Shown: in pieces, positions 15,601 through 59,323 of the stretch
How the letters are laid out: the number at the start of each line of letters is the position of its first letter
Numbering within the stretch: position 1 is the stretch's first letter
Source of the DNA: Peptostreptococcaceae bacterium
Lineage (GTDB): Bacteria; Bacillota; Clostridia; Peptostreptococcales; Peptostreptococcaceae
Direction: 5' to 3'
DNA: 64,000 bases
NCBI GenBank assembly: GCA_051654865.1
Contig: JBOFYV010000007.1
Location: forward strand, 32,053 to 96,052
Position numbers and translations under genes: made by a program
The notes under the pieces: model-generated
What the model saw: the letters and a program-made list of their open reading frames with translations, nothing else
What the model was told of the DNA's origin: nothing
The model's database searches: none

Positions 15601-16307
15601 GTGCGAATAGCTTAGCTTCTATAAATAGAGATAATCAATCAAGATACATTACAGTAAGTGCATCAATTGATTCTAAGTTTAATATCGGGCTAGTGAGTAG
15701 AGATGTACAATCAAAGCTAAAAGATTATGAGTTACCATCAGGATATACAATTGAAATGAAAGGTGAAAATGAAACCATTAATAAATCATTTACAGATTTA
15801 TTACTTATGGGAGCATTAGCTATAGTATTCGTATACTTAATAATGGTTGCTCAGTTCCAATCGTTACTATCTCCATTTATAGTAATGTTTACAATACCTT
15901 TAGCATTTACAGGAGGATTACTTGCATTATTAGTGACTAATAATGACTTAAGTGTAATATCATTACTAGGGTTCCTAGTATTATCAGGTGTGGTAGTAAA
16001 TAATGGTATAGTATTTGTTGATTATATTAATCAACTAAGATTAAGTGGAATGAAGAAAAAAGATGCTATAATAGAAACAGGACGTACTCGTATTAGACCT
16101 ATACTTATGACAGCTCTTACAACAATATTAGCAATGTCAACAATGGCGATAGGTGTTGGTATGGGTGCAGAAATGACACAAGGGTTAGCTATAGTGACTA
16201 TTGGAGGGTTATTATATGGAACGGTACTTACATTAGTTGTTATACCAGTTTTATATGATTTATTACATAAAAAAGAATTAAAGCAAATCCTAATAGAGGA
16301 GGAATAA
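12669..16307 (+). CDS. RND-family (AcrB-like) efflux transporter permease with a large coiled-coil insertion in periplasmic loop 1
   Basis: 1212 aa; AcrB-like N-terminus and TM topology with two 6-TM bundles; about 200 extra residues (aa ~185-390) of heptad-like Q/E/K-rich sequence. Confidence 0.8.
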   Translation: MISKFSVKRPFTVAVGVIMVLILGIVSFMNMTTDLLPSVDLPYVMVNTVYPGASPEKVEATVSKPLEQALATTSGLENISSVSSENSSMVILEFNQDVNMDSAMIDVSGKIDMVKGMFDEGVQSPVTVKMNPDMMPIMMLSIDIEDMDIKEVTKYVNDNIMPKFERIEGVASVSAVGLVQDQLKIKLDEKKIDDINNKILANIDDELSIQQNELNKSKTDLSKSKQELDSQKKNQTSQIESGLKELQTAKKELQAAVNVIGLSKGELQDKIDEANMAYAQNSLQLSTLKEAQRNLVEGSEEYIKLQGQITALEEVDAKIKEGISQAKKGIEAIDSLAQLDAKEKELLTGKVTLEKELNNASSQITQGESQLKSAQEQLDNAKESAYKSANIKDKITPEMIGNILTAENFSMPAGYIKENETQYSVKVGEQFATVEELENLLLFNVDVKGVGDIKIKDVASVEFVDNSSDTYTNVNGNPGIMLTFQKSSAYSTANVTKSINKTISSLSNENDKMHITTLMDQGVYIDLIIDSVLSNLIYGGILAVIVLLLFLRSFKTTIVVAFSIPISVLFAIVLMYFSGITLNIISLSGLALGVGMLVDNSIVVIENIYRLRNEGMSMAKAAVYGAKQVAAAISASTLTTICVFLPIVFTGGMTKQLFVDMGLTIAYSLIASLVVALTVVPAMSSNLLTKVDEKEHILFDKFVNIYEVILRKSLKHKIVVILFAIALLGFSGYKAVTMGTSFMPTMDSTQMTATLTMPKESKKSDTYKMSDKFIDTLLTIEDIETVGAMESTGMMGQAGEGMSFYIILKEEKKLSNIEVEDLIYEKTKDLECEIKVTASNMDMSALGGSGIQIEVKGTDLDKLQEIAKDLAAVLSTVEGVADVSNGMEDASTETRVVVDKNKAMEYGLTVAQVYQKVSSIIEEEKEATKVTIENNEYPVIVASDVDISRSDLKKYKIKATKGQEEVEIKLSDIASIQSANSLASINRDNQSRYITVSASIDSKFNIGLVSRDVQSKLKDYELPSGYTIEMKGENETINKSFTDLLLMGALAIVFVYLIMVAQFQSLLSPFIVMFTIPLAFTGGLLALLVTNNDLSVISLLGFLVLSGVVVNNGIVFVDYINQLRLSGMKKKDAIIETGRTRIRPILMTALTTILAMSTMAIGVGMGAEMTQGLAIVTIGGLLYGTVLTLVVIPVLYDLLHKKELKQILIEEE

Positions 16308-24440: not shown

Positions 24441-24776
24441 TTAGCAAGTGGAACAAGGGCAATTATAGTTAGTAGAGATTTCTCTAACACAAATATTAAT
24501 TGGGTTTGTTGATACTAAACTAATTACGCCACTACAATTAACATTTACAGTTACTAAAACAACACTTGTAACAGGAGTTGATGTGACAACTGTTTTTTGT
24601 GCTATATAATAATATACAGTTTGGCAATTACATTTTTCTAGTACTAATAGAGGAACATAAGTAGTACCTAAGATATTGCCAATAGCTGTGTTGAAAATTT
24701 GTAATTGAGCAGCTGTTAATGGTGCGAAATTACCACAAGTATAAGTGTTATTTTGGTTACAATTATTTTGTACCAT
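24441..24776 (-). CDS. small cysteine-rich protein (9 Cys in 111 aa), possible spore coat/exosporium component
   Basis: RBS ggag 9 nt upstream; no signal peptide; beta-strand-rich core with terminal Cys clusters (C6, C14, C49-x-C51, C81, C96, C106-x-C108, C111); isolated monocistronic unit. Confidence 0.55.
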   Translation of the reverse strand: MVQNNCNQNNTYTCGNFAPLTAAQLQIFNTAIGNILGTTYVPLLVLEKCNCQTVYYYIAQKTVVTSTPVTSVVLVTVNVNCSGVISLVSTNPINICVREISTNYNCPCSTC

Positions 24777-24830: not shown

Positions 24831-24860
24831 TATTATATGTATTTAAAATCAAAATGTGAC
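24831..24860 (-). promoter_or_regulatory. candidate sigma-K-type (or sigma-A) promoter for the Cys-rich protein
   Basis: minus strand reads AC-16nt-CATATAATA, about 55 nt upstream of the start; AT-rich context makes a chance match possible. Confidence 0.25.
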
Positions 24861-29044: not shown

Positions 29045-29083
29045 ATATGATATCTTAGTGTGATTCAATAGATATTATAGTAA

Positions 29084-29122
29084 AAAAGAGTAAATTTATT
29101 TAATAAGCTTACTCTTTTTTTG
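29084..29122 (+). terminator. rho-independent terminator
   Basis: aaaagagtaa ...15 nt... ttactctttttttg. Confidence 0.75.
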
Positions 29123-29266
29123 TAATAAAAATATTATTATTATTTAATTCAAATACTAACATAATATTGATACAAGTGGATATACATTGAATCCTATCAC
29201 ATTTATAAAAAGTTAGCATATATATATACTAGATTAATTATATGATTATTCTAATATATATATAAG

Positions 29267-31231
29267 ATGGTGATTAAAATTTCAAAGTCTAAAGGAATAT
29301 TATCCAATTTAAAAAAAATCTTAATCTCTAGTGAAACAAATGTAGTTTCTTATGATGAATCGAGCAGAGATAAGGCTATTGTTGATGAAAATAATTATGA
29401 TGACTCAGATATAAGCCTATCACTTGATCAAGCTATTACAAATGAGACTCAAGTAAATACTGAGGAGTTAAAAGAATTCATAAATTCGGAGGTAAACATA
29501 AAAATTGATGAGGATACTTGTTTTGATGTGCTAGATACAAAAGGAAATAGTTATTATACAACTGGAAAAAGAAAAATTCTTTTCAAGGTAGAAAAATACA
29601 AATTTAACTACCCAGTACCTAAATCTACAACACTATATTATTACCCCAATTTACCTATAATACAAAGCTTAGAATATACAACAAAAACTAAAACGGATAA
29701 AACTAAAACTACTACAATAATTTGTAACAATCAGCAGGTAGATGTACCAATTGAATATGAGTATGATGAAGTTACATTTAAACCATATGTTTCTTATTCT
29801 GTTGCTCTTTATAATCAAAAACCATCGTGTTTAATTGATACATCTAAAGGGGATTTTGATATAAATAATTTAGATATCTACACATTAGAAAATGACTCTT
29901 TATTTTTAATACCATTTACAATGTGTTTTCCTAAACCTGCAAAAGTTTTTTATCCTTCAGATTATTTAGTTGAAGTTTCAATTGTAAATCCAATAGGAGG
30001 TAAAGTTTCCCCAGTTTGTGAATTTGATTCTTACTATCTATATGAGGTTGAAGTAATAATTGAGTTAACTATAGCTCAATCTGTAAATCTAAACACTATA
30101 AATATGGATACTCTAAATGTTTTAAATGCTAAATTAGATAAACCTTTTGGAAATACAATATTTACTCAATGTGAACTTGAATCTGTCACAGAAATTGATT
30201 TTTCAACATTAAATACATTAAATAATTCTAGAATTAGTACTGTGTATTTAGATTATAATATATTTGATTATCTTCCAAATCTGAGTATATTAAATATTTC
30301 GGGAACTAATGCAAATCAAAATACATCATCTAACTTTGCACATTTAAATAATCTTCATAAATTAACTAGATTAATAGCAGCAGATAATAATTTTAATAAT
30401 TACAATGGATTTAGCATACTTACAAATTTGGTAGGGAGTCTTACTGGTTTAAATCTAAATAATACATCTGATTTAGTTAATAATATCAGTGTATTAGGAG
30501 TACCTGATGGGGATATTTCACCTATTATGATATTTACTAATTTAATAAGACTAGATCTTTCTGGAAATAAATTGAGTAGTTTACCTGCGTCTATTAGTAG
30601 TCTTTCTAATTTAGTTAACTTAAATTTAAGTAATAACAACTTGATTTCATTACCAACAGAGTTTTCTAGTCTTACAAACTTAAAATCATTAGATTTATCA
30701 AAGAATAAGATAGATGATTTGTCAGCTTTATATGGTCTTGATAATATAGAGTATTTAAACATAGCAGGTAATACTATAGATCCAAATATTATTGAAAATT
30801 TAAAGGTCACGATATTGGATTTTTCTAATAGTAACCTTAATAATCAATCTCTAAATACATTGAAATTAGCTAGTACAGTAGAAACTCTTATAATTTCAGA
30901 AAATCATATATCTGATTTAACTCCATTAGGAGAATATAATATTGAGATTATAGCTAAAAATCAAAGTTTCGATTATGGTACACTTAATAGTCAAGCAGGA
31001 GGAATATATATACTTGAGTTAGAAGATTTCTTACTAGATGAGCAAGGATATGTTCCATGTATTAATTATATTTCAGATGAAGGTACTTGTGAACCTGTTG
31101 AAAGTTGTGATTGTATGAGTATAATATGGATAAATTTAAATCCTGTAACTCAAGCTTATTTTACTTTCTCAAATGAAACTAATACTTTTGATGGGACGGT
31201 TACAGTCGAACTTACCTTGACTCAAGCATAG
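29267..31231 (+). CDS. leucine-rich repeat (LRR) protein without signal peptide, with a Thr/Lys-rich tract and a Cys-containing C-terminal domain
   Basis: 654 aa; about 10 LRR units (LxxLxLSxNxLxSLP) at aa ~420-520; TTKTKTDKTKTTT tract; no RBS and no N-terminal signal; C-terminal CINYISDEGTCEPVESCDC. Confidence 0.65.
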   Translation: MVIKISKSKGILSNLKKILISSETNVVSYDESSRDKAIVDENNYDDSDISLSLDQAITNETQVNTEELKEFINSEVNIKIDEDTCFDVLDTKGNSYYTTGKRKILFKVEKYKFNYPVPKSTTLYYYPNLPIIQSLEYTTKTKTDKTKTTTIICNNQQVDVPIEYEYDEVTFKPYVSYSVALYNQKPSCLIDTSKGDFDINNLDIYTLENDSLFLIPFTMCFPKPAKVFYPSDYLVEVSIVNPIGGKVSPVCEFDSYYLYEVEVIIELTIAQSVNLNTINMDTLNVLNAKLDKPFGNTIFTQCELESVTEIDFSTLNTLNNSRISTVYLDYNIFDYLPNLSILNISGTNANQNTSSNFAHLNNLHKLTRLIAADNNFNNYNGFSILTNLVGSLTGLNLNNTSDLVNNISVLGVPDGDISPIMIFTNLIRLDLSGNKLSSLPASISSLSNLVNLNLSNNNLISLPTEFSSLTNLKSLDLSKNKIDDLSALYGLDNIEYLNIAGNTIDPNIIENLKVTILDFSNSNLNNQSLNTLKLASTVETLIISENHISDLTPLGEYNIEIIAKNQSFDYGTLNSQAGGIYILELEDFLLDEQGYVPCINYISDEGTCEPVESCDCMSIIWINLNPVTQAYFTFSNETNTFDGTVTVELTLTQA

Positions 31232-31246
31232 AAACATAATTTAAAA

Positions 31247-31291
31247 TAAAAGTCTTCTATTATTTATAAAGATAGAAGACTTTTATTTTTA
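31247..31291 (+). terminator. rho-independent terminator
   Basis: aaagtcttctat ...11 nt... atagaagactttt followed by attttta. Confidence 0.75.
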
Positions 31292-31303
31292 TGAGGTGAT
31301 TGT

Positions 31304-32011
31304 ATGATTAATAATGGATTTTCTATTATTACTGTAACTAATAGGAAATATTGCATAGATAATATATTGAAAAACTACTATAATCAGATGTTTACTAATA
31401 AAGAACTTATTATTATTATTAACTCAGACTATATTGAAATAAGTGATTTTAGTAGATATACTAATGACTTAAATGTACGTATATTCAATAAATTAGGTAA
31501 CGTCACACTAGGAGAATGCTTAAATTTTGCAATAGAAAAATGTAATTATGACTTTATTGCAAAATTTGATGATGATGACTACTATGGCGTGTATTATATA
31601 CAAGAAGCCTTTAATATATTTTCAAATAACAGTTGTGCAGTTGTAGGCAAAAGTAGAACGTATTATTATATAGAAAAAAATAATGAATTAATGTTAAAGA
31701 AAATAGGAAATGAAAATAAATATAGCAACTCTATAATGGGATCTACTATTTGTTTTAAAAAAGAAGTTTATCAGAAGATAAAATTTAGACATATATCATC
31801 TAGGGAAGATTACTATTTTAATAAGGATTGTATAAATAGTGGGTACAGAATATTTTCATCATCTTCTTTTAATCATATTGTATTTAAGCATTCAGATGAA
31901 TATAAACATACTTTTATGTCTAATATTGAGATACTAATGGGTAAATGTGAAATTATTAAAGAAAATATATCTTTTGAAGAGAGTTTTAAATTTGTAGACT
32001 TTTTAACTTAA
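31304..32011 (+). CDS. GT-A fold (GT2-like) glycosyltransferase, paralog A
   Basis: 235 aa; FSIITVTNRKY..NKELIIIINSD N-terminus and KFDDDDYYG DxD motif; no TM segment; paralogous to 33197..33937. Confidence 0.6.
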   Translation: MINNGFSIITVTNRKYCIDNILKNYYNQMFTNKELIIIINSDYIEISDFSRYTNDLNVRIFNKLGNVTLGECLNFAIEKCNYDFIAKFDDDDYYGVYYIQEAFNIFSNNSCAVVGKSRTYYYIEKNNELMLKKIGNENKYSNSIMGSTICFKKEVYQKIKFRHISSREDYYFNKDCINSGYRIFSSSSFNHIVFKHSDEYKHTFMSNIEILMGKCEIIKENISFEESFKFVDFLT

Positions 32012-32020
32012 AACTTGATA

Positions 32021-32075
32021 TAAATATTAATACAAGGAAGAATAAAGACGTTTTAGTCATTAATCTTTCCTTGTA
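32021..32075. terminator. bidirectional terminator
   Basis: acaaggaaga ...23 nt... tctttccttgt followed by atattttattta; lies between convergent genes. Confidence 0.6.
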
Positions 32076-32079
32076 TATT

Positions 32080-32982
32080 TTATTTATCTAGTATTATTAA
32101 ACCTTGTCTTGCACCAGAATGCTTATAGTTTATACCAGTATAATAAAAGTAATATATACTATTGACAATAGTTAAACTTGGTCTGTATAATCCATTCTTA
32201 TCCCAATTATTATCACTTACCTTTAGTATTGTAGAACAATTGCTCCAAAGTTTATTATCTAGGCTACAGGAATATATACATGATTGTCTATTTTTTACAT
32301 TTGCTACTAATTCATACAGTTCACCGTTTTTAATAACGTCGATATGCCAGAGTTTAATTTCGCTAAGTTGCATATCTCTTATGTGCATTAAATTTATGCC
32401 ATCCAAGCTCTCATAATATCTAAGTAGATAAGTGTTATAGTCTAAAGTTCCAACAAACCATACTTTGTATATATCATCATTATATATAACGGCAGGAGAT
32501 AATAGCCAACCATCAGTACCATTACTTTCTAATAATTTTATTCGTGTAGACCAATGTATTCCATCAGTGGAAACTTTTTTATATATAGTCTCTTTTCTTG
32601 GATTTTTAGAAAAGTGTCGATACCATACTTCCATAGTATCTCCATTCATAACTATATGTGTATCGCTATTGTATTCCAAGTTTTCTTTTTTTATATTATC
32701 AATAGGGTTTATTAATCCATTAGGCACAGTCCAATTTACACTATCATTTGAAACAACAATACAGGGATTTTCTATATTTTCATTTATTGAAGGGTAGTAT
32801 GTTAAAGGTGTAAATACCATCCAAAATTTATATCCATTCCACCCATTGTCAAAGTATAATGTTTTGCTGTGAACACATTGATTGCTACCGTCATAAGTAG
32901 GAATATTCAAATATTGAGATGCATTATCAAGATAAGTTTTATCTAATGAGAGAGTTTTTTTGTAAAACATAATATATACCAC
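32080..32982 (-). CDS. beta-propeller glycoside hydrolase-like protein (GH43/GH32/GH130-type fold, uncertain)
   Basis: 300 aa; repeated W/Y-rich blade-like segments; no signal peptide; RBS aggtgg. Confidence 0.35.
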   Translation of the reverse strand: MVYIMFYKKTLSLDKTYLDNASQYLNIPTYDGSNQCVHSKTLYFDNGWNGYKFWMVFTPLTYYPSINENIENPCIVVSNDSVNWTVPNGLINPIDNIKKENLEYNSDTHIVMNGDTMEVWYRHFSKNPRKETIYKKVSTDGIHWSTRIKLLESNGTDGWLLSPAVIYNDDIYKVWFVGTLDYNTYLLRYYESLDGINLMHIRDMQLSEIKLWHIDVIKNGELYELVANVKNRQSCIYSCSLDNKLWSNCSTILKVSDNNWDKNGLYRPSLTIVNSIYYFYYTGINYKHSGARQGLIILDK

Positions 32983-33196
32983 CTATAATTATTTTATATT
33001 TGACAAACACATACAAATATATCTATATATTAGCATATGTATTTTATAAAAAAATGTAACATTATATAATAAAATAAAATATACACATTATAATTTAAAG
33101 ATATAAAATTAAGAATAATTCAGGAACTAATGAAATTGCAATGCATATTATATTATAAATATATGAACATGGTAAATTTAAAGGAGGAGAATTAAG

Positions 33197-33937
33197 TTGA
33201 CTATTGAAGAGGGATTCTCTGTTGTTACATCAACTTATAGATACGAGTGTATAGAGAACTTGATTAATAATTTTATAGTTCAAGATTTTAAAAATAAAGA
33301 ATTAATAGTAATAATAAATAATGATAGTATAGAAATATCTGATTTTGATATTTATACACAAAAAGAGTCGAGTATAAAAGTTTACAAACTTCCACAAGCG
33401 ACAAATCTAGGAATTTGTTTGAATTTTGCAATAAGCAAAGCAAAATATAAATATGTAGCTAAATTTGATGATGATGATTTGTATGGCAAAAACTATTTAA
33501 AAGAAGCGTATAATGCTTTTATTAAAGAAGATTGTGATGTGGTTGGTAAATGGCAGTATTTAATTTATTTAGAAGGAGAAAATAAAATTCTTGCAAGGCC
33601 TAAAGATCCAAGGAGAAGTAGACAATTTGCATATGTATCGTGGCTTCCTGGGGCTACTCTTTGCTTTAAAAAAAGTATATTTGAAGACATAGAATTTTCT
33701 GATATAAATAGTCAAGTAGATGATGATATAATGAAAAAATGTGTTGAAAAAAAATTAAAGATATTTTCAACATCAAGAAATAATTTTATAGCAATGAGAC
33801 ATATAGATACAAATAAGCACACATGGAAGATAACTCATGAGAAACTTATAGAAACTTGTACTTTGATTAAAGAGGATATATCATTTGAAAAAGCGTATGA
33901 AGCTATAAATAATGATGATGATTTATATACAAATTAA
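33197..33937 (+). CDS. GT-A fold (GT2-like) glycosyltransferase, paralog B
   Basis: 246 aa; TTG start with RBS aaggaggag; FSVVTSTYRYECIENL..NKELIVIINND and KFDDDDLYG; about 40-45% identical by eye to paralog A. Confidence 0.6.
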   Translation: MTIEEGFSVVTSTYRYECIENLINNFIVQDFKNKELIVIINNDSIEISDFDIYTQKESSIKVYKLPQATNLGICLNFAISKAKYKYVAKFDDDDLYGKNYLKEAYNAFIKEDCDVVGKWQYLIYLEGENKILARPKDPRRSRQFAYVSWLPGATLCFKKSIFEDIEFSDINSQVDDDIMKKCVEKKLKIFSTSRNNFIAMRHIDTNKHTWKITHEKLIETCTLIKEDISFEKAYEAINNDDDLYTN

Positions 33938-33999
33938 AATTTATACTATACAAACATATAATAAGCAATAAATTATATCATAATAGAAAGGAGCCAAAT

Positions 34000-35292
34000 A
34001 TGTTATATAGTAAATCAGAATATAATAAAATCGCAGTAATTGGACTAGGATATGTAGGATTACCGCTAGCTATAGAATTTGATAAACATTTTAGCGTAAT
34101 TGGATTTGATATAGATAAAAACAAGATAAAATCATATATTGAAGGAATAGATGCGACAAATGAAGTTGGAGATGATAATTTAAAAAACAGTACTATTGAG
34201 TTTACATCAGATGAAACAAAACTAAAGGAAGCGAACTTTTATATAATAGCAGTTCCAACTCCAATAAATATAGATAAAACACCTGATTTAAATCCTATAA
34301 TATCAGCAAGTGAAATTGTAGGTAGAAATTTAGAATCAGGAGCTGTAATCGTATATGAATCAACTGTTTATCCAGGACTTACAGAAGAAGTATGTATTCC
34401 TATACTTGAGAAAAGTTCAAGTCTTAAATGCAAAGATGATTTTAAGGTGGGGTATTCTCCTGAAAGGATAAACCCTGGAGATAAAGTAAATAAACTTCCA
34501 AGTATAGTTAAGATAGTTTCTGGATGTGATGAAGAAGCATTAGAAATTATATCTAATATATATGGTGTAATAATTAAAGCAGGATTATGTAAAGTGAAGA
34601 ATATAAAAGTTGCAGAAGCCGCAAAAATACTAGAAAATTCACAAAGAGATATAAATATAGCATTTGTAAATGAAGTTGCAATGATTTTTCATAAAATGGA
34701 TATAGATATAAATGAAGTATTAAATGCTTGTAAGACTAAGTGGAATTTTTTAGACTTTACACCGGGCTTAGTAGGTGGAAATTGTATAGGTGTAGATCCA
34801 TATTACTTAATATATAAAGCAAATACTCTAAGCTGCTCATCTCAAATAATATCTTCAGCTAGAAATATAAATGATAATATGGGAAATTATATAGGTGAAA
34901 ATATAATAAAAAAACTTATTCTTTGCAACAAAAAGGTAAAAAACGCTAATGTAGGCATATTTGGAATAACATTTAAGGAAGATTGTCCAGATTGTAGCAA
35001 TAGTAAAGTAGTAGATATAATTAATTATTTAAAGGAATATGATGTAAATATAAAGGTTTTTGATCCAGTAGCTAGTTTTGATGAAATTAAGAAGAAATTT
35101 AATGTAGAGCTATGCAAAATAGAAGAAATGAAAGACTTTGATGTTATAGTATTTGCAGTAAATCATCAGTTCTTCAAAGACACATTTAATATAGAAAATA
35201 TAAGTATACTCTATCAATCTGATACTAAAATTTTGATAGACATAAAAGGTATCTTTGATGATACAGATAAGTATGTATATTGGAGATTATGA
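34000..35292 (+). CDS. nucleotide-sugar dehydrogenase (UDP-GlcNAc/UDP-ManNAc 6-dehydrogenase family, TviB/WbpA/Cap5O-like)
   Basis: 430 aa; N-terminal Rossmann KIAVIGLGYVGLPLA; central catalytic Cys region GGNCIGVDPYY. Confidence 0.75.
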   Translation: MLYSKSEYNKIAVIGLGYVGLPLAIEFDKHFSVIGFDIDKNKIKSYIEGIDATNEVGDDNLKNSTIEFTSDETKLKEANFYIIAVPTPINIDKTPDLNPIISASEIVGRNLESGAVIVYESTVYPGLTEEVCIPILEKSSSLKCKDDFKVGYSPERINPGDKVNKLPSIVKIVSGCDEEALEIISNIYGVIIKAGLCKVKNIKVAEAAKILENSQRDINIAFVNEVAMIFHKMDIDINEVLNACKTKWNFLDFTPGLVGGNCIGVDPYYLIYKANTLSCSSQIISSARNINDNMGNYIGENIIKKLILCNKKVKNANVGIFGITFKEDCPDCSNSKVVDIINYLKEYDVNIKVFDPVASFDEIKKKFNVELCKIEEMKDFDVIVFAVNHQFFKDTFNIENISILYQSDTKILIDIKGIFDDTDKYVYWRL

Positions 35293-35324
35293 TTTTAGTT
35301 ATAAAAAATTAAAAGGTGATAGAT

Positions 35325-36887
35325 ATGAACTTGGATTTAAATCAAAGTAAATGGTTAAGCAAAAGTAAAGTGAAAATATATAATGATAATAATTTTTTAG
35401 TAATAGAATATGATGAATCAAGCAGTGAACATGGGTATGAATATATACAATATGAACATTTTACTACATTCACTAAATATAGTGAAAAAGATAGAACTGA
35501 TATGAGCCCAAATAATGTCTATAGGGTAGATTTTGATGGCAAAATTGAAGGTAATATAAATGTACTATTGACAATAAAAACTTATTCAAAAGCAGGACAA
35601 CTGTCCTCTAATAATATAACTACAGGTAGTAGTATTATTATGAAAGCAGATGAAAATATAATATCCTATAAAGTTGCAATAAGAGTAAGTGGAAAAGGTA
35701 GAATAGTAATCAATAATATAAGTATAAATGATTTTAATGAAAATTATTTAGCAAATAAAGACAAAAGTGAAAAATATCTTATATTAACCAATGGGTACCC
35801 TAGTGATAATGATTTATATAGAAATGCATTTATTCATAGAAGAGCAAAACTGTATAAATCTAGTAACTTAAATCTTGATATATATTATTTATGCAAAGAC
35901 AGATATTTGATTAGCTATAAATTTGATGGAGTTGATATATACAAAGGTAATAGTAAAATGTTAGAAGATGTTATTAAATATGGAAATTATAAAAAAATAT
36001 TAATACATTTTGTAGACTCAACTATGATTGATACAATAAATAAAAATATACCTAATATAGAAAAAGTTGTGTGGATTCATGGTTATGAAGCTGAACGATG
36101 GGATAGAAGACTATTTAATTATACAGGCGATGAAATAGATAGAAATAAGTTTATATTTGATAAAAATGATGAAAATAAGTTTATATTTCTAAGAAAAATA
36201 TATAAAAGTCCTGAATATACATTTGTGTTTGTATCTAATTATCATAAAGAAGCTTGTGAGAGTGATGCTAATACAAAAACAAAACACTCATATGTAATTC
36301 CAAATGTAGTAGATGAAAAGCTTTTTAATTTTACACCAAAAGATATAGAACAAAGAAAAAAGATACTTTTAATAAGACCGTTTAAATACAAACATTGTGC
36401 TAATGACTTAGCAGTAAAAGCAATAATAGAATTAGCTAAAAGAGAAATTTTTAAAGAATTAGAGTTTAATATATACGGAGAAGGTAGTTTATTCTATGAG
36501 ACTTTAAGTCCTATAAAGGATTTAAAAAATGTTAACATACACAATACCTTTTTAACTCAAGATGAAATTTCACAAATGCACAAAAAACATGGAGTGTTAT
36601 TGTGTCCAACAAGAAAAGATAGTCAGGGTGTATCAATATGTGAGGCAATGAGTAGTGGACTAGTACCTGTTTCCACAAATATAGATGCTATACCAGAATT
36701 TGTTCCTTTCAATTGTGGTATGCTATCAAATCCAGAAGATTATATAGGGCTTGCCAATTCAATAGAATATATTTATAACCATCCTGATATATTTTTAGAA
36801 ATGTCCCAAAATGCATCTTCTTTTATTAAGAATAAGTGTGGAATAGATAAGACAATATCAAAAGAATTAGAAATAATAAGACGCTAA
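35325..36887 (+). CDS. GT4-family (GT-B, Glycos_transf_1) glycosyltransferase with an N-terminal extension of about 140 aa
   Basis: C-terminal ...HGVLLCPTRKDSQGVSICEAMSSGLVPVSTNIDAIPEFV typical GT4 E-x7-E region; ATG 35325 preferred over GTG 35316 on RBS spacing. Confidence 0.65.
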   Translation: MNLDLNQSKWLSKSKVKIYNDNNFLVIEYDESSSEHGYEYIQYEHFTTFTKYSEKDRTDMSPNNVYRVDFDGKIEGNINVLLTIKTYSKAGQLSSNNITTGSSIIMKADENIISYKVAIRVSGKGRIVINNISINDFNENYLANKDKSEKYLILTNGYPSDNDLYRNAFIHRRAKLYKSSNLNLDIYYLCKDRYLISYKFDGVDIYKGNSKMLEDVIKYGNYKKILIHFVDSTMIDTINKNIPNIEKVVWIHGYEAERWDRRLFNYTGDEIDRNKFIFDKNDENKFIFLRKIYKSPEYTFVFVSNYHKEACESDANTKTKHSYVIPNVVDEKLFNFTPKDIEQRKKILLIRPFKYKHCANDLAVKAIIELAKREIFKELEFNIYGEGSLFYETLSPIKDLKNVNIHNTFLTQDEISQMHKKHGVLLCPTRKDSQGVSICEAMSSGLVPVSTNIDAIPEFVPFNCGMLSNPEDYIGLANSIEYIYNHPDIFLEMSQNASSFIKNKCGIDKTISKELEIIRR

Positions 36888-36893
36888 AACTTT

Positions 36894-36942
36894 AGCCAAT
36901 AGTACCTAGAAATTAATATGGAAGCTATTGGCTTTATTATGT
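36894..36942 (+). terminator. candidate terminator
   Basis: agccaatag ...23 nt... ctattggct followed by ttattatg; weak U-tract. Confidence 0.35.
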
Positions 36943-36996
36943 CTATTCAAAACATTTCATTATTAGTTAAATGCTTGTTAGTATGATGAAGTTGTA

Positions 36997-37686
36997 TTAA
37001 TCCTTAGACAAGTTAAAATTATTTAAAATTATTTTCTTTTGAATAGAATTATCTATAATATTCCTTACAAATGGATGATTAAACTTAGTGCTAGTATTTT
37101 GACCATGTAGTATTACCATAAAATTTCCACTATTAAATACATAATGATTAAGTTTTATTGCATTAGTATGGCTATTTAGTATATATCTGAATCCACTTAA
37201 ATAGTCTTGAACTTTGTAAATAAGAGTAAAAAAAGGAGGGGATTGAGCATACCAAATTCCCAAATTATCACCAACTATATCATAGACATAACCTTCTTTA
37301 TTTACTATACACTCTAAGTTGGAGGTATGCTCAAAATCTATTAATTGTTGAATGAAATTAGGATGATACATATCATCACTGTCTAGTCTTACAATATAAA
37401 GATAATCATAACCATGTATAATTTTTTTTATAAGAGCGTTTCCACTAGATGTAAAGATTATATTAGAAGGCATTAAATCATATTGAGAAAGAGCGCTTTG
37501 AATTAATACCTCGCTAAGTTCATCATAGTGAATTATAGCAGTAAAAGATTGGTTAGTTTGATTTATCAAACTTTTAAATGTATAATTCATAAAAATGCTC
37601 ATTCTATAGTCAATCCATTCTTTATTTAGTCGAAATTGGTTTAGTTTATTCTTATTGAAACTAATATCAATAATTATTTTTTTCAT
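36997..37686 (-). CDS. GT-A fold glycosyltransferase (DSDD motif; putative rhamnosyltransferase-like family)
   Basis: 229 aa; LYIVRLDSDDMYHPNF DxD-type motif; RBS gaggtga; no TM. Confidence 0.5.
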   Translation of the reverse strand: MKKIIIDISFNKNKLNQFRLNKEWIDYRMSIFMNYTFKSLINQTNQSFTAIIHYDELSEVLIQSALSQYDLMPSNIIFTSSGNALIKKIIHGYDYLYIVRLDSDDMYHPNFIQQLIDFEHTSNLECIVNKEGYVYDIVGDNLGIWYAQSPPFFTLIYKVQDYLSGFRYILNSHTNAIKLNHYVFNSGNFMVILHGQNTSTKFNHPFVRNIIDNSIQKKIILNNFNLSKD

Positions 37687-37788
37687 AGTATCACCTCAAT
37701 ATACAATATGTAAATTTATAGGAAATAGTGCTACCTTCTATACTCATAAGTGATTCATAGTTATTAAATATGCAAATTAATATCCTTT

Positions 37789-37917
37789 GATCAATATATA
37801 ATTGTAAAAGATATTGGAATTGGAATGCCTAAAGAAAAAATAGAAAATAAAGATGATGACATATTAGATTCACCGACTCAATTTTTAAGTGGGGGAAATA
37901 TATTATAGGTGGAATTT
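37789..37917 (+). pseudogene. short remnant resembling a histidine-kinase ATP-binding G1 box
   Basis: Frame reads ISFDQYIIVKDIGIGMPKEKIENKDDDILDSPTQFLSGGNIL-stop with no usable start; compare VKDTGIGMS in the intact kinase at 55427..57403. Confidence 0.25.
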
Positions 37918-38075
37918 TCGGATATATATATAAAGATAAGATAAAAAGTCAGAATATATCAAAAGACTATGAATTTTAAAAATTAATAGTCTTTTTTGCA
38001 TATCGAAATATAAAGGGAATAGTTTTATGAAAAAGAATATAAATTAAGAAGTAAATTATTGGGGGAAATTGTAAC

Positions 38076-39662
38076 ATGAGAAAGATACTAAATTCTATAA
38101 TTATTTTTTCAGCATTAGTTACTATCACAGGGTGTACATCGACTATTCAAACTGAAGTAAAAAACGAGGTAGAAGAAGAGGTAAAGGAAGTAAAAGAAGA
38201 ACTATTAACATCAATAGAAACATCATACTTAGATAATGAAACTTTATCATACAAAACAAATACAGAATTTGAACATAATAAAGATATAGTATTTCAAAAT
38301 AAATATTCTGATATAGATGGAATATTTACATTTAGAGGAAACTCTCTTAGGAATGCACCTTCATTTGGTAATGCAAAACTAGATAGCAAAGAACTTGAAG
38401 TAGCATGGGAATTTAGAACATCTTCTAGCTCTTGGGGAGGAGGAGCTGGATGGACAGGTCAGCCAAGTATAATCAAGTGGCCAAAAGAACTTAGAGAAAG
38501 TATGAACATATATGATGAATTTAAGAGTAAAGAAGATTTTACAGAGGTTATATATGCAAGCTTAGATGGAAATATATATTTTATAGAGTTAACATCAGGA
38601 AAGCCAACCAGAGATAAAATAAGAGTAGGAAATCCAATAAAGGGAAGTGTAAGTATAGACCCTAGAGGAATACCATTGTTATATGTAGGAGAAGGTATAA
38701 ATGAAAGTGGAACAGTAGGATTTAATATATATAGCTTGATAGATGGATCTCATTTATATGAATTGCCAGGATCTGATTCATTTGCAAGTAGAGGGTGGCC
38801 AGCATTTGATTCATCTGCTATAGTAAACAAAGAAACAGATAGTGTGGTATTAGGTGGAGAGAATGGGTTATTATATAATATAAAATTAAATACAGACTAT
38901 GATAAAAATAACAACACGATAAGCATAGATCCTAAAATAAATAAATATAATTTTTCATCAAATCTAAACAAAGGGCGTTTAGGAATAGAAAACTCAGTAG
39001 CTACATATGCAAACCTTGCTTACTTTGCAGATAATGGTGGAGTAATACAATGTGTAGATTTAAATACTTTAAATCCAGTATGGTCAATAAATGGTTTTGA
39101 TGATATTGATGCTACATTAACTATAGATGTAAAAGAAGGAAAACCATATGTATACTGTGGAAATGAAGTAGACCATCAGGGAACTAGAGGAATCAGTAAA
39201 TTAAAAAAGATTGATGGGCTAACAGGAGAAGTAATTTGGGAAAAAGAATTTGAATGTCAGTCACTATTAGGGAAAAAACCTAATAATGGAGGTCTAATGG
39301 CTACAAATGTAATAGGTAAAAATAATATTGATGACTTAGCAATATTCTCACTAGCAAGATATAATGGATTTAATAAAGGAGGTACGTTTGCTTTAAACAA
39401 AGAAACAGGAGAAATAGTTTGGGAAACTTTATTTGATAATTATATGTGGTCATCACCTGTTGATATATATGATGAAAATGGAAATGGATATATTATCCAA
39501 GGGGACAGTGCGGGGAATTTACATCTATTAGATGGCGAATACGGTAAGAATCTAAATTCAGTATTATTAAATGGAAACATAGAAAGCTCACCTGCAGTAT
39601 ATAACGATATGGTAGTAGTTGCAACTAGAAATGGAACAATATACGGAGTAAAAATAAAATAA
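38076..39662 (+). CDS. lipoprotein with PQQ-like/BamB-like beta-propeller repeats
   Basis: 528 aa; lipobox VTITGC; repeated ...DG.IY..D..TG..VW... propeller blades. Confidence 0.6.
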   Translation: MRKILNSIIIFSALVTITGCTSTIQTEVKNEVEEEVKEVKEELLTSIETSYLDNETLSYKTNTEFEHNKDIVFQNKYSDIDGIFTFRGNSLRNAPSFGNAKLDSKELEVAWEFRTSSSSWGGGAGWTGQPSIIKWPKELRESMNIYDEFKSKEDFTEVIYASLDGNIYFIELTSGKPTRDKIRVGNPIKGSVSIDPRGIPLLYVGEGINESGTVGFNIYSLIDGSHLYELPGSDSFASRGWPAFDSSAIVNKETDSVVLGGENGLLYNIKLNTDYDKNNNTISIDPKINKYNFSSNLNKGRLGIENSVATYANLAYFADNGGVIQCVDLNTLNPVWSINGFDDIDATLTIDVKEGKPYVYCGNEVDHQGTRGISKLKKIDGLTGEVIWEKEFECQSLLGKKPNNGGLMATNVIGKNNIDDLAIFSLARYNGFNKGGTFALNKETGEIVWETLFDNYMWSSPVDIYDENGNGYIIQGDSAGNLHLLDGEYGKNLNSVLLNGNIESSPAVYNDMVVVATRNGTIYGVKIK

Positions 39663-39853: not shown

Positions 39854-40486
39854 ATGGATTTAATTAGTAAAATAAGAAAAAATACAGGGGCTTTACATAG
39901 TGCGACTGAAAATAGTGGTATTATAAAAAGAATATTAGATGTAAATTCTAATAAAGATGATTATGCAGAGTATTTATTTAATCTATATCCAATGTACAAA
40001 GCAATAGAAGATACTATTGAAAATAATAAATCTAATGAAACTGTAAAAAACTTTGCAACAAAAGAATTATATAAGTCTGAATTAATAAAAGAGGACTTAG
40101 AGTATTTACTAGGTGACAAAATAGACACACTAAAGTTACTACCGTCAACAATAGCTTCAGTAGAAAGAATTCGACAAATAAATGAAAATGAGCCGGAGCT
40201 TATAGTTGCATATGCATACACAAGATTTATAGCAGACTTATTTGGAGGACGTACTTTTGCTACATTATTAAGTGAGAAATACGAACTACCAACAGAAGCT
40301 CTAAATTATTATAATTGTGAAGGTATAAAAGATATTAGAGGCTATGTAATGAACTATGCTTCTAAAATAAATAATATAGAATTAACAAAAGAGAAGGAAG
40401 ATAAAATTTTAAATGAAGTAAGTAATGCATATATATATAACTTAGGAATATCATGTGAATTAGAGGCTAAATTGAATAAAAAGTAA
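39854..40486 (+). CDS. heme oxygenase (HO-1/HemO-like, biliverdin-producing) family protein
   Basis: 210 aa; N-terminal LHSATENSGIIKRIL...YAEYLFNLYPMYKAIE matches the heme oxygenase proximal helix pattern. Confidence 0.5.
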   Translation: MDLISKIRKNTGALHSATENSGIIKRILDVNSNKDDYAEYLFNLYPMYKAIEDTIENNKSNETVKNFATKELYKSELIKEDLEYLLGDKIDTLKLLPSTIASVERIRQINENEPELIVAYAYTRFIADLFGGRTFATLLSEKYELPTEALNYYNCEGIKDIRGYVMNYASKINNIELTKEKEDKILNEVSNAYIYNLGISCELEAKLNKK

Positions 40487-40694
40487 CTATAATGAAAACG
40501 TATAAACAAATTAATCACCCCCATATGAGTTAAAATAAACTTATATGGGGGTATTTCTTATATATAATACCGCGAAATAATACAATGAATTAATAATATT
40601 TTATAAATAATACTTTAAACATCAAATAAAAATAGCACAATAAAATAGTTGCTGTCATATTATAAAGAAAATATATAAATAGGGGGCAATTATT

Positions 40695-41201
40695 ATGAAA
40701 AAGTATATTGATAATAAAAATAGACCTGGTGGAATTGTAATATTCCCACCGGGAGGAGGACCAGGACCGGTTATATATCCACCAAATACATTTCCACCTA
40801 TACCGCCATTACCACAACCAGAAAATGATAAGTTTAAGGTGAAAATAAAATCAGTATTTGAAAATGGATTTGTAGTAGTTGGGGAAAATGGATATTTATA
40901 CGTAGCTGAAGATAAGTATACTAAAAATGCAGTATTTAAATTGATATTTGATAAAAATCAAGTAAAAATCAAGTATATAAATGATAACTTTATAAGAGTT
41001 GATCAAAGGGGATTCTTGATAGCTGATACCAATAAAAAAGGTGCTACAGTATTTAATTTATATAAAGTGGACAAGGAACAATATGTATTACAAGCTCCAA
41101 ATGGATATTATGTAAGAGTAAGGGATAAAGATAATTTACTAGTAGCAAAAGCTGAAAAAGCAGGGCCAAGAACTATATTTAAATTTAAAATGGTAGATTA
41201 A
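40695..41201 (+). CDS. beta-trefoil (fascin-like) domain protein with Pro/Gly-rich N-terminal linker
   Basis: 168 aa; three pseudo-repeats of about 40 aa; PPGGGPGPVIYPPNTFPPIPPLPQP segment; no signal peptide. Confidence 0.4.
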   Translation: MKKYIDNKNRPGGIVIFPPGGGPGPVIYPPNTFPPIPPLPQPENDKFKVKIKSVFENGFVVVGENGYLYVAEDKYTKNAVFKLIFDKNQVKIKYINDNFIRVDQRGFLIADTNKKGATVFNLYKVDKEQYVLQAPNGYYVRVRDKDNLLVAKAEKAGPRTIFKFKMVD

Positions 41202-42780: not shown

Positions 42781-42845
42781 AAAATCAAAAGTGTATCAAT
42801 ATAAATATTATTATATTGATACACTTTTGATTTATTATTTTTTAA
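42781..42845. terminator. bidirectional terminator with a 21-bp perfect stem
   Basis: aaatcaaaagtgtatcaatat aaatattatt atattgatacacttttgattt followed by attatttttt. Confidence 0.75.
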
Positions 42846-43290
42846 TAATAAAATCCTTTATATATCCGTAAGACTCATAATTATCAAACATAGGTATAGA
42901 TGAATCAAATTTAACATAAATAGGTGTATTAATAAGCTCTGGGTATTTTATGAATAAATCCTTATCACCATAAAATATAGCTTCTAGGGCTAATCTCATA
43001 TGGTATTTAAAAGCGGCATATTTCATAGATGCACTAAAAAAATCTGACTCGTTAACATAAGCATAAAAATATAATTTATAAGAAACATCCTCAGACATTT
43101 TCCAAGAACCTAAAAGTTCATCTCTTAAATCTTTGTTTATAGCTTCATAATTAAAAAAATCAGCTATATTCAAAAACATCATACCAGTATCATCAGAATG
43201 GGTAAGGGTGTACTTTCTATTTTCAATAGGTCCAAAAGGAGTCATAGGTTCAATAAACGTAGTTTCTAATTTATTAGGGTTAAATTTCAT
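42835..43290 (-). CDS. STAY-GREEN (SGR) family protein homolog (Mg-dechelatase-like)
   Basis: 151 aa; YTLTHSD block and C-terminal GDKDLFIKYPEL...VKFDSSIPMFDNYES match, as I recall them, the plant SGR/NYE1 blocks (YTLTHSD; GDGNLLNNYPEL..VYFHSN.PEFNKVE). Confidence 0.6.
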   Translation of the reverse strand: MKFNPNKLETTFIEPMTPFGPIENRKYTLTHSDDTGMMFLNIADFFNYEAINKDLRDELLGSWKMSEDVSYKLYFYAYVNESDFFSASMKYAAFKYHMRLALEAIFYGDKDLFIKYPELINTPIYVKFDSSIPMFDNYESYGYIKDFIIKK

Positions 43291-58818: not shown

Positions 58819-58852
58819 GTTTTAGTACAACTATATGAAAGTTGGTGAGTTT

Positions 58853-59323
58853 ATGAAAAAAGTTATTTTATCCATAATTATTTCAATAGCAGTACTATTA
58901 TCAACTTCTATAAATACTTTTGCATATGAAAGAGATGATATTGTAAAAGAATATATATCATACCTAGAAAATATAGATAAAAATGTTGAATTTGCAGTGA
59001 AAAATTCTTTGAAAGCAAAAGAAGAGAATAATACAAAATTAATTGATGAGTATAAAAAAAGTATCAATACTGTTGATGGAGAGGTATCTAGACTATTAAC
59101 AAGTGTAACAAATGATTATAAAGAGTATAAAAATGATAATAAAATTTCAAATATACTTCTATATATAGGAATTATATTATCAGATTATAAATTTGCAATA
59201 GATACATTAAATACTTATTTAGAATCAGATAATACAGATATAAAGTATGAATCTCTTAAAAACTTATTTATTTCATTATCAGATGCAGAAAGAAAGATAG
59301 ATACGTTAAAACGTAGTAATTAA
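58853..59323 (+). CDS. secreted hypothetical protein
   Basis: signal peptide MKKVILSIIISIAVLLSTSINTFA; RBS ggtgag before ATG 58853. Confidence 0.45.
   Translation: MKKVILSIIISIAVLLSTSINTFAYERDDIVKEYISYLENIDKNVEFAVKNSLKAKEENNTKLIDEYKKSINTVDGEVSRLLTSVTNDYKEYKNDNKISNILLYIGIILSDYKFAIDTLNTYLESDNTDIKYESLKNLFISLSDAERKIDTLKRSN

Follow-up and report, generated by a model that had tools for sequence, protein, structure and literature searches.

A signal-less leucine-rich-repeat protein and its glycosyltransferase neighbours in a Peptostreptococcaceae genome: a candidate spore-surface glycosylation module

The block of genes described here occupies positions 29267-37686 (29.27-37.69 kb) of a 64-kb window, by which we mean the whole stretch of 64,000 nucleotides analysed, from the forward strand of contig JBOFYV010000007.1 of a Peptostreptococcaceae bacterium (GenBank assembly GCA_051654865.1). 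The DNA of the window is low in GC content (about 27-28%). An original prediction, made from the sequence, had described the block as a cytoplasmic glycosylation island of seven consecutive genes attached to a leucine-rich-repeat (LRR) protein without a signal peptide, and had proposed that it serves the spore surface or protein glycosylation. All seven genes were found in place and their family calls are backed by Pfam and NCBIfam. The genes are as follows.

29267/29270-31231, plus strand: LRR protein, with the Pfam matches LRR_8, LRR_4 and LRR_14 solely over residues ~410-560.
31304-32011, plus strand: GT2a, a 235-aa glycosyltransferase (GT) of GT-A type (family GT2), with a Glycos_transf_2 (Pfam) match and an FDDDD motif.
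32080-32970, minus strand: ORF3, an open reading frame (ORF) for a 296-aa signal-less five-bladed beta-propeller, identified by profile and structure homology, with zero Pfam or NCBIfam matches.
33197-33937, plus strand: GT2b, a 246-aa GT-A, with a Glycos_transf_2 match and an FDDDD motif.
34000-35292, plus strand: nucleotide-sugar 6-dehydrogenase, TviB/WbpO/Cap5O-like, with all three UDPG_MGDP_dh domains.
35316-36887, plus strand: GT4 transferase (GT-B), with the GT1 domain at residues 350-500 (PF13692 and PF00534).
36997-37686, minus strand: a further GT-A of 229 aa, with an LDSDD motif and a marginal Rhamno_transf match (23.7 bits against a 23-bit cut-off).

The two GT-A genes with the DDDD motif are paralogues, as had been proposed, with 41% mutual identity, and GT2b opens a unit with the dehydrogenase and GT4 genes. 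The dehydrogenase had been assigned to the UDP-N-acetylhexosamine (UDP-HexNAc) type, and this assignment was upheld: its top NCBIfam match is the TviB UDP-N-acetylglucosamine 6-dehydrogenase (433 bits, short of the equivalog cut-off of 592 bits) and the closest solved structures in the PDB are UDP-HexNAc dehydrogenases. Its predicted product would be a UDP-HexNAc uronic acid. The GT4 enzyme indeed carries the additional N-terminal domain ascribed to it, of ~150 residues, which is weakly Asp3-like at a sub-threshold level (E 0.004-0.025). Counterparts of the LRR protein, ORF3 and GT2a with 100% identity were found in a Peptostreptococcaceae metagenome-assembled genome (MAG) (P0001, P0121, P0227).

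The arrangement of the block was compared with related loci, of which L001 and L005 belong to Romboutsia lituseburensis and L002-L004, L006-L009, L012 and L013 are metagenomic. A GT2a orthologue was observed directly 3' of the LRR gene in every locus with downstream sequence, the identity being 45-64% in L001, L002, L003, L004, L006, L012 and L013, and a 242-aa Glycos_transf_2 gene holds this position in L009. In some related loci the gap between the two genes is just 6-8 nt, which suggests that they are co-transcribed. Wherever a locus extends far enough, the LRR gene is also flanked by genes for sugar-nucleotide enzymes and GTs, of which the upstream set is mostly divergent and differs between loci. 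As an example, a UDP-sugar dehydrogenase and CgeB/YkvP-type transferases (PF13524) are present in L001, L002, L004, L007, L009 and L012, L009 also has a methyltransferase, an epimerase and a CMP-sugar synthetase, and the sugar set of L008 consists of RmlA, FdtA, DegT, GT61, pyruvyl-transferase and ATP-grasp genes. YkvP_N transferases were found in related loci as well, and the minus-strand GT-A has orthologues in L001, L002 and L003 (51-54% identity). ORF3 alone of the seven genes has no counterpart in the related loci (tblastn).

One R. lituseburensis assembly (L001, 1284-6746, minus strand) encodes an 1820-aa fusion of CgeB-type, GT4 and GT2 (GT2a/GT2b-like) domains, and residues 28-523 of the window GT4, which include its N-terminal domain, are 40% identical to part of this fusion. 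Since homologues of separate window genes are joined in one protein, these genes are likely to be functionally linked. The recurrence of the LRR-GT linkage across loci argues that the association between the LRR gene and the sugar genes is not due to chance. In this comparison the LRR gene and GT2a form the constant pair, and the remaining genes behave as a variable glycan island.

Two further arrangements were noticed. Three consecutive signal-less heparinase II/III-like genes (PF16889/PF07940) lie by the LRR gene in L002/L003 (187-6420) and at least one in L012 (1-553); their products would be enzymes of the lyase or C5-epimerase type acting on uronic-acid polymers and are here apparently cytoplasmic. 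In Anaerosalibacter, a module of GT2, dehydrogenase, GT2 and CgeB-GT2 genes occurs without an LRR gene.

The LRR protein is 653 aa long when counted from a conserved GTG (29270), as in the deposited protein; an ATG lies at 29267. A family alignment together with an AlphaFold2 (AF2) model resolves it into a conserved N-terminal motif (VIKISKSxGIFSKLKxIF), a linker reaching residue ~95, a family-specific beta-rich domain (~96-275), the LRRs (~280-555) and a Cys-rich beta-sandwich (559-650). The residue pattern of the N-terminal motif suggests an amphipathic helix, where the AF2 confidence is low. The acidic linker is variable (60-110 aa in most members and 167 aa in P0019, the most divergent) and is modelled as disordered. 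The number of repeats also differs among the members, and both the N-side beta-domain and the Cys-rich sandwich are conserved. Pfam gave no matches for the isolated N-domain or the isolated C-terminal domain, and a structure search with the LRR model was dominated by the LRR region and returned no fold class for the N-domain. The C-terminus (...TVTVELTLTQA) ends in the Cys-rich sandwich and a sorting signal was not seen in the translation. A signal-less protein with a Cys-rich C-terminus would be compatible with a protein of the outermost spore layer; no report of spore or exosporium LRR proteins was found in the searchable literature.

Full-length LRR homologues are few, and all the named ones come from Romboutsia or Peptostreptococcaceae. 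When one genome per species was scanned with the family profile, the only two loci recovered were those of R. lituseburensis DSM 797 and a single Romboutsia MAG. The LRR family is therefore rare, and the comparative data derive mostly from metagenome contigs. We noticed that the start region of the gene (AAAAAGAAGGTGATTAAAAT; 29255-29290 in the window, and also in L001, L002, L004, L005, L007, L008, L009, L012 and L013) is unusual and highly conserved. The GTG is embedded in a Shine-Dalgarno-like GGTGA and a canonical Shine-Dalgarno sequence at normal spacing upstream is absent. Synonymous differences downstream place the GTG in the coding frame, and the longer N-termini predicted for P0007 and P0009 are probably incorrect.

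The block had been said to encode no signal peptide or transmembrane (TM) helix, and hydropathy analysis agreed for all seven proteins. The top Kyte-Doolittle mean over 19 residues is at most 1.32 in each and a hydrophobic N-terminus was found in none, whereas the neighbouring beta-propeller lipoprotein (38076-39662) scores 1.74. In addition, ~45 glycan proteins from seven related loci have no TM helix or signal peptide by hydropathy, where scores above the threshold belong to Rossmann GxGxxG motifs only. Pfam was run on 46 window ORFs of at least 94 aa, leaving the 1212-aa ORF 12669-16307 and the 162-aa ORF 58835-59323 unscanned. Wzx, Wzy, polyprenyl-phosphate transferase and ABC exporter genes, which had been reported as missing, were not found among the 46, and an initiating transferase, Wzx/Wzy or an ABC exporter was likewise not found in nine related loci, taken with flanks of up to 10 kb. 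By hydropathy and Pfam the block has the soluble, export-free character of mother-cell glycosylation systems of the spore surface.

These results bear on the possibility of a conventional pathway for a capsule, teichoic or teichuronic acid or S-layer glycan, with the genes for the carrier lipid and for export situated elsewhere in the genome, which we consider extremely unlikely. The GT2 enzymes do match TuaG, WcaA and EpsE weakly, the dehydrogenase resembles the capsule enzymes TviB and Cap5O, and MATE-family genes are present in the window. However, the capsule and teichuronic equivalog scores are 26-35 bits against cut-offs of 400 and above, and the three MatE genes of the window are ordinary MATE-type genes with strong MatE matches that lie outside the block. 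Moreover, besides the initiating transferase, flippase, polymerase and exporter genes that were not found among the scanned window ORFs and in the nine related loci, the constant partner in this family of loci is a signal-less protein and not a membrane component.

The promoter regions were examined against those of Clostridioides difficile, where the sigmaE and sigmaK promoters have a common CATA-type -10 element and a -35 element of ATA (sigmaE) or AC (sigmaK) (PMC3789822). Candidate sigmaK promoters in that species are those of bclA2 (atcAC...CATATAAT) and bclA3 (gtcAC...CATATTAT) (PMC3789822 Table S7). Motifs of the sigmaK type were observed in the block as follows.

29196-29224, plus strand: upstream of the LRR gene; ATCACA, 15 nt, CATATATA, the -10 element ending 45 nt before the GTG.
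33031-33057, minus strand: 49 nt before the reading frame of ORF3; AC, N16, CATATGCTA, seen in a single sequence.
33126-33152, plus strand: 45 nt before GT2b; AC, N16, CATATTATA.
37702-37729, minus strand: 16 nt before the ATG of the minus-strand GT-A; AC, N17, CATATTGTA.

The motif of the LRR gene is the one that recurs. The pattern AC, N15-17, CATAT[AT][AT][TA] was found upstream of the GTG in 10/10 loci with upstream sequence, with the -10 element ending 33-51 nt from the start, and the chance rate of the AC-N15-17-CATAT pattern is ~0.03 per 140 nt. In the intergenic alignment only the AC and CATAT blocks and the start region are conserved. The -35 element is mostly (A/T)TCAC and resembles those of the candidate bclA2 and bclA3 promoters. 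A position weight matrix (PWM) trained on 25 mapped C. difficile sigmaK promoters was used to score 49 window genes, where three of the six top upstream regions belong to the block. GT2b has a second, better site 111 nt upstream (GTAACA, 16 nt, AATATACA) with a PWM score of 13.2, exceeding the 99th percentile for random windows of 200 nt. The function of the motif before the minus-strand GT-A is doubtful because its spacing to the ribosome-binding site is tight. With the C. difficile-trained PWMs for sigmaK and sigmaE, the enrichment at the GT operons was modest and a clear sigmaE signal was not obtained.

The best sigmaK-type match in the whole window lies outside the block, at ~24831-24859 (GTCACA, 15 nt, CATATAAT; PWM 15.7), 55 nt upstream of a gene for a Pfam-blank 111-aa protein with nine Cys (24441-24776, minus strand). 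This product looks like a small Cys-rich protein of the spore coat or exosporium, and its gene hints at spore formation by the host of the window. That the best promoter of this type precedes a coat-like gene suggests that the consensus is meaningful in this genome. A sigmaK-like motif was also noticed at 40637-40664 (AC, N17, CATATTATA), 31 nt upstream of a gene for a 168-aa protein (40695-41201, plus strand) with a Pro/Gly-rich N-terminus (PGGIVIFPPGGGPGPVIYPPNTFPPIPPLPQP) and a fascin-like domain, which may be another late mother-cell gene.

In some loci the blocks upstream of the LRR gene allow an alternative reading as a weak sigmaA promoter (TTTATA, 17 nt, TATACT; 9/12). This would fit a system of vegetative cells unrelated to spores, which glycosylates a non-classically exported protein in the cytoplasm or makes an intracellular glycan. 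The weak similarity of the GT4 N-domain to Asp3 of the accessory Sec glycoprotein pathway and the lack of adjacent sporulation genes point in the same direction. This sigmaA reading, however, lacks conservation: TTTATA is replaced by CTCTGA in L012 and the supposed -10 element changes position, whereas the AC/CATA spacing is fixed in the ten loci. Neither the scanned window ORFs nor the related loci yielded SecA2/SecY2, flagellin or S-layer genes, the scanned window ORFs likewise yielded no serine-rich-repeat protein, and the sub-threshold Asp3 match of the GT4 N-domain is the sole trace of an accessory Sec (SecA2/Y2) system. Spores are also indicated by the CgeB/YkvP-type transferases and by the restriction of the GT2a family to spore formers, and we regard a vegetative role as very unlikely.

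The named GT2a homologues (~40% identity) come without exception from endospore-forming Firmicutes (Bacillus, Paenibacillus, Neobacillus, Oceanobacillus, Ammoniphilus, Anaerosalibacter, Caloranaerobacter, Clostridium and Syntrophomonadaceae). R. lituseburensis, which carries the locus (L005), readily makes mature spores (bioRxiv 10.1101/845511). We favour, with moderate confidence, the interpretation that the block is a mother-cell, export-free glycosylation module of the outermost spore layer. The original proposal of soluble cytoplasmic machinery, probably for the spore surface, gains support from the LRR-GT linkage in every related locus recovered, the sigmaK-type motif before the LRR gene, the CgeB/YkvP-type transferases of the orthologous loci, the spore-forming sources of GT2a and the soluble glycan proteins of the related loci.

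Several observations weigh against this interpretation. The sigmaK and sigmaE motifs are short and AT-rich, and a strict regular expression for sigmaK gave 14 matches over the window where ~11 were expected. The motif count alone is therefore uninformative, and it is position and conservation across loci that carry weight. With the strict C. difficile PWM the LRR promoter of the window scores just 7.3, about the median, because its -35 element is ATCACA and not GTAACA. The divergent GT/dehydrogenase operons of the related loci are middling (~50th-99th PWM percentile), with motifs that are weak or absent, and the regulation of the transferase genes is therefore uncertain. No clear sigmaK motif was found at the distant GT2a modules of Bacillus (L010) and Anaerosalibacter (L011), and no recognised sporulation gene lies near the block. 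Furthermore, GT4 of the window does not belong to the CgeB type, matching PF13692 and PF00534 instead, and the LRR protein is without an obvious Ser/Thr-rich acceptor tract, the linker having 16-30% Ser+Thr against 15-20% elsewhere. The spore-surface prediction is drawn entirely from sequence.

The last of the compositional points concerns what the glycan would be attached to. The original prediction had singled out a Thr/Lys-rich tract of the LRR protein (TTKTKTDKTKTTT) as a site for O-glycosylation. This could not be sustained, as the tract is a conserved segment aligned to the consensus ELTKNIKHDNTKTTTIICN and is modelled as a long strand within the folded beta-domain. As O-glycosylation tracts, both this segment and the linker were rejected, since composition gives no support for them. 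Within a spore-surface module, the LRR protein as glycan acceptor is put forward tentatively.

An equally tentative alternative keeps the spore module and gives the LRR protein another role, either as an internalin-like adhesin or ligand binder or as a scaffold that recruits the transferases, in which case other coat or exosporium proteins would carry the glycan, or it would form a free layer of polysaccharide. As a scaffold, the LRR protein would do in trans what the tetratricopeptide repeat (TPR) domain does in C. difficile SgtA, which needs its fused TPR domain where GT2a is a bare GT-A (PMC7157674). The lack of a Ser/Thr-rich tract, the strand position of the Thr/Lys segment and the pattern of constant LRR and GT2a with varying glycan gene sets all fit such a constant anchor or scaffold. 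On the other hand, the strict pairing of the LRR gene with GT2a resembles that of an acceptor with its initiating transferase (cgeAB, sgtA-bclA3), and the conserved TTT motif and the exposed acidic linker could still carry glycan.

ORF3 most likely starts at the ATG at 32970, which gives the 296 aa listed above. It had been described as a propeller glycosidase-like gene; the five-bladed propeller stands and the glycosidase assignment does not, owing to homology with a deacetylase. A profile of the ORF3 family (32 homologues) recovers PDB 6N1A/6N1B with E = 3e-51 (hmmsearch), and the AF2 model of ORF3 (predicted local distance difference test score 92.5) superposes on 6N1A with a TM-score of 0.81 (Foldseek, E = 9e-18), the next structural matches, GH130, GH43 and GH32, being far weaker. 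The entry 6N1A is the N-acetylgalactosamine (GalNAc) deacetylase of Flavonifractor plautii used in A-to-O blood-group conversion (PMC11762096). This enzyme is the sole close characterised relative of ORF3. Residues H34, E67, D103 and H209 are invariant in the ORF3 family and correspond in the alignment to His, Glu, Asp and His of 6N1A, an enzyme whose catalytic residues were reportedly assigned by Rahfeld et al. 2019. The position which we take to be the catalytic His97 of the F. plautii enzyme is a Tyr in ORF3. From homology and the model, ORF3 is better read as a candidate glycan N-deacetylase than as a glycosidase. The two proteins also differ in size, the crystallised chain having 503 residues, and in setting, since the F. 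plautii enzyme is employed on the cell-surface blood-group A antigen whereas ORF3 has no signal peptide. The F. plautii deacetylase is a secreted protein with a C-terminal carbohydrate-binding module.

The following hairpins were found at the left edge of and within the block.

29075-29125, plus strand: terminator-like hairpin with a U-tract at the left edge of the block, after a MutS2-like gene (-12.5 kcal/mol, z = -3.0).
31243-31289, plus strand: strong 19-bp hairpin with a U-tract between the LRR gene and GT2a (-19.8 kcal/mol, z = -6.4).
32030-32076, no strand assigned: hairpin between the convergent GT2a and ORF3 (-18.1 kcal/mol, z = -4.8).
36894-36933, no strand assigned: hairpin between the convergent GT4 and minus-strand GT-A genes (-15.1 kcal/mol on the plus and -12.5 kcal/mol on the minus strand, z about -2.2).

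These were folded one by one. A simple terminator scanner had missed every real one because they are AT-rich or long-looped. The hairpins would split the block into four or five predicted transcription units (LRR; GT2a; ORF3 on the minus strand; GT2b-dehydrogenase-GT4; GT-A on the minus strand). Of the earlier description of a block bracketed by strong terminators, the hairpins with U-tracts are therefore real and the bracketing is not, as they occur both at the left edge of the block and in its interior and divide it.

The composition of the block likewise qualifies what had been claimed for it. Its proteins had been called strikingly Asn-rich. The excess is real in four of the seven (10.3-11.6% Asn against 7.2 +/- 2.4% for window ORFs) and its magnitude is only modest; in the LRR protein it is partly due to the LRR consensus itself. 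A hint of horizontal acquisition had been read from this and from the terminators. The GC content of the block is slightly below that of the rest of the window (p = 0.02), but the GC content at third codon positions (GC3) and the synonymous codon choice equal those of the rest of the window. Codon usage is thus native, and neither GC3 nor synonymous codon likelihood gives any sign of recent horizontal acquisition. The LRR-GT2a pair adjoins a sodium:dicarboxylate symporter (SDF) gene in L001, L002, L004 and L009 and lies between the MutS2-like and lipoprotein genes in the window. The module therefore sits in different chromosomal contexts, its codon usage being native nonetheless.

The genes around the block are of the housekeeping type (the MutS2-like gene, MATE, Nramp, heme oxygenase and permease genes). 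An anti-phage defence role was considered and excluded, as PADLOC yielded just one trivial match, to the LRR protein (E = 8.5e-4, 17 bits), and none to the other six proteins. An orphan short reading frame (IVKDIGIGMPKEKIENKDDDILDSPTQFLSGGNIL; 37801-37909, plus strand), followed by a terminator-like hairpin (37961-37996), was noticed in the 390 bp that separate the block from its right-hand neighbour. By eye it is similar to the G1-box region in the ATPase domain of a histidine kinase and may be what is left of a gene at the block edge; a Pfam scan of this 35-aa fragment was empty. Further to the right, a Staygreen-family protein (PF12638, E = 1e-43), of a family best known for chlorophyll breakdown in plants, is encoded at 42835-43290 (minus strand), ~2.3 kb from the heme oxygenase gene (39854-40486).

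Under the favoured interpretation of a mother-cell module, the steps would be as follows. Late in sporulation, sigmaK RNA polymerase of the mother cell would transcribe the LRR gene and probably also the transferase units. The dehydrogenase would oxidise a UDP-HexNAc to the uronic acid, and the three GT-A enzymes and GT4 would assemble a glycan from nucleotide sugars directly on a component of the spore surface. A lipid carrier, flippase or exporter would be unnecessary because the developing spore sits inside the mother-cell cytoplasm. The propeller protein probably N-deacetylates some of the HexNAc residues once the glycan is complete. The signal-less LRR protein would be deposited on the spore, where its N-terminal amphipathic motif and its Cys-rich C-terminal domain are candidate anchors, and would either bear the glycan or organise glycan and enzymes at the surface.

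In gut clostridia, adhesion, dispersal, the access of germinants and recognition by the immune system are all controlled by the outermost spore layer, whose components beyond Bacillus and C. difficile are largely unknown and poorly conserved. If the interpretation is true, LRR or internalin-type proteins are to be added to the collagen-like (BclA) and Cys-rich (CdeC/CsxA) components of the spore surface. The sugar genes by the LRR gene vary by strain in the manner of O-antigen and flagellin glycosylation islands, but the assembly would take place entirely within the cytoplasm of the mother cell. The GalNAc deacetylase used for blood-group conversion would here have a cytoplasmic relative that serves biosynthesis and not degradation. 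R. lituseburensis DSM 797, which is cultivable, sporulates readily and carries the locus, offers a testable model.

A more speculative extension, which we hold to be rather unlikely as a whole, is that the LRR protein is a "spore internalin", an internalin-like protein displayed on spores without secretion and coupled to a strain-variable island for a uronic/amino-sugar glycan. The N-terminal motif and the beta-domain would then act as the anchor, and the LRR protein would be a new class of spore glycoprotein acceptor or a substrate-recognition and scaffold subunit working in trans for the bare GT-A enzymes. Such an LRR-glycan pair might set spore adhesion or host/phage recognition in gut Peptostreptococcaceae. 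Like Listeria internalins, the LRR protein has an LRR domain followed by an Ig-like inter-repeat domain. It differs from them in having no signal peptide and no visible sorting or anchoring signals (LPXTG, GW, WxL), in its extra conserved N-terminal motif, linker and novel beta-domain, and in its NCBIfam InlA score of 38 bits against a cut-off of 1600 bits.

The nearest known systems are those that glycosylate spore surfaces. In Bacillus subtilis, cgeAB encodes the crust protein CgeA and the putative transferase CgeB (PMC13577073). The crust glycosylation genes of this species (cgeAB, cgeCDE, sps, ytcABC, cotSA) resemble the block in relying on soluble mother-cell transferases and sugar-nucleotide enzymes with no lipid carrier or exporter, and cgeA, the gene for the acceptor, lies beside cgeB as the LRR gene lies beside GT2a. 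Furthermore, the related loci have CgeB/YkvP-type PF13524 transferases and a dehydrogenase like ytcA. In contrast to B. subtilis, homologues of CgeA, CotVWXYZ and Sps were not seen here, the partner, an LRR protein of 650 aa, has a family-specific N-domain, the window GT4 is not of the CgeB type, and the host belongs to the Peptostreptococcaceae, a clostridial lineage.

In C. difficile, a member of the same bacterial family, sgtA adjoins bclA3 and SgtA adds beta-O-GlcNAc to Thr of the exosporium protein BclA3 (PMC7157674). Both arrangements place a gene for a soluble GT2/WcaA-like GT-A next to that of a signal-less protein, of the spore surface in the case of BclA3, and the candidate sigmaK promoter of bclA3 (gtcAC...CATATTAT) is akin to that of the LRR gene (PMC3789822). 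BclA3 is collagen-like whereas the partner here is an LRR protein, and SgtA has a C-terminal TPR domain which GT2a does not possess. The block also has three GT-A genes, a GT4, a dehydrogenase and a deacetylase-like gene, and these additional genes imply a larger, uronic-acid-containing glycan. The kind of system is already known; what is new is the LRR/internalin-like partner with its family-specific N-domain, together with the strict pairing of an LRR protein with a bare GT-A, the strain-variable glycan island and the deacetylase-like propeller.

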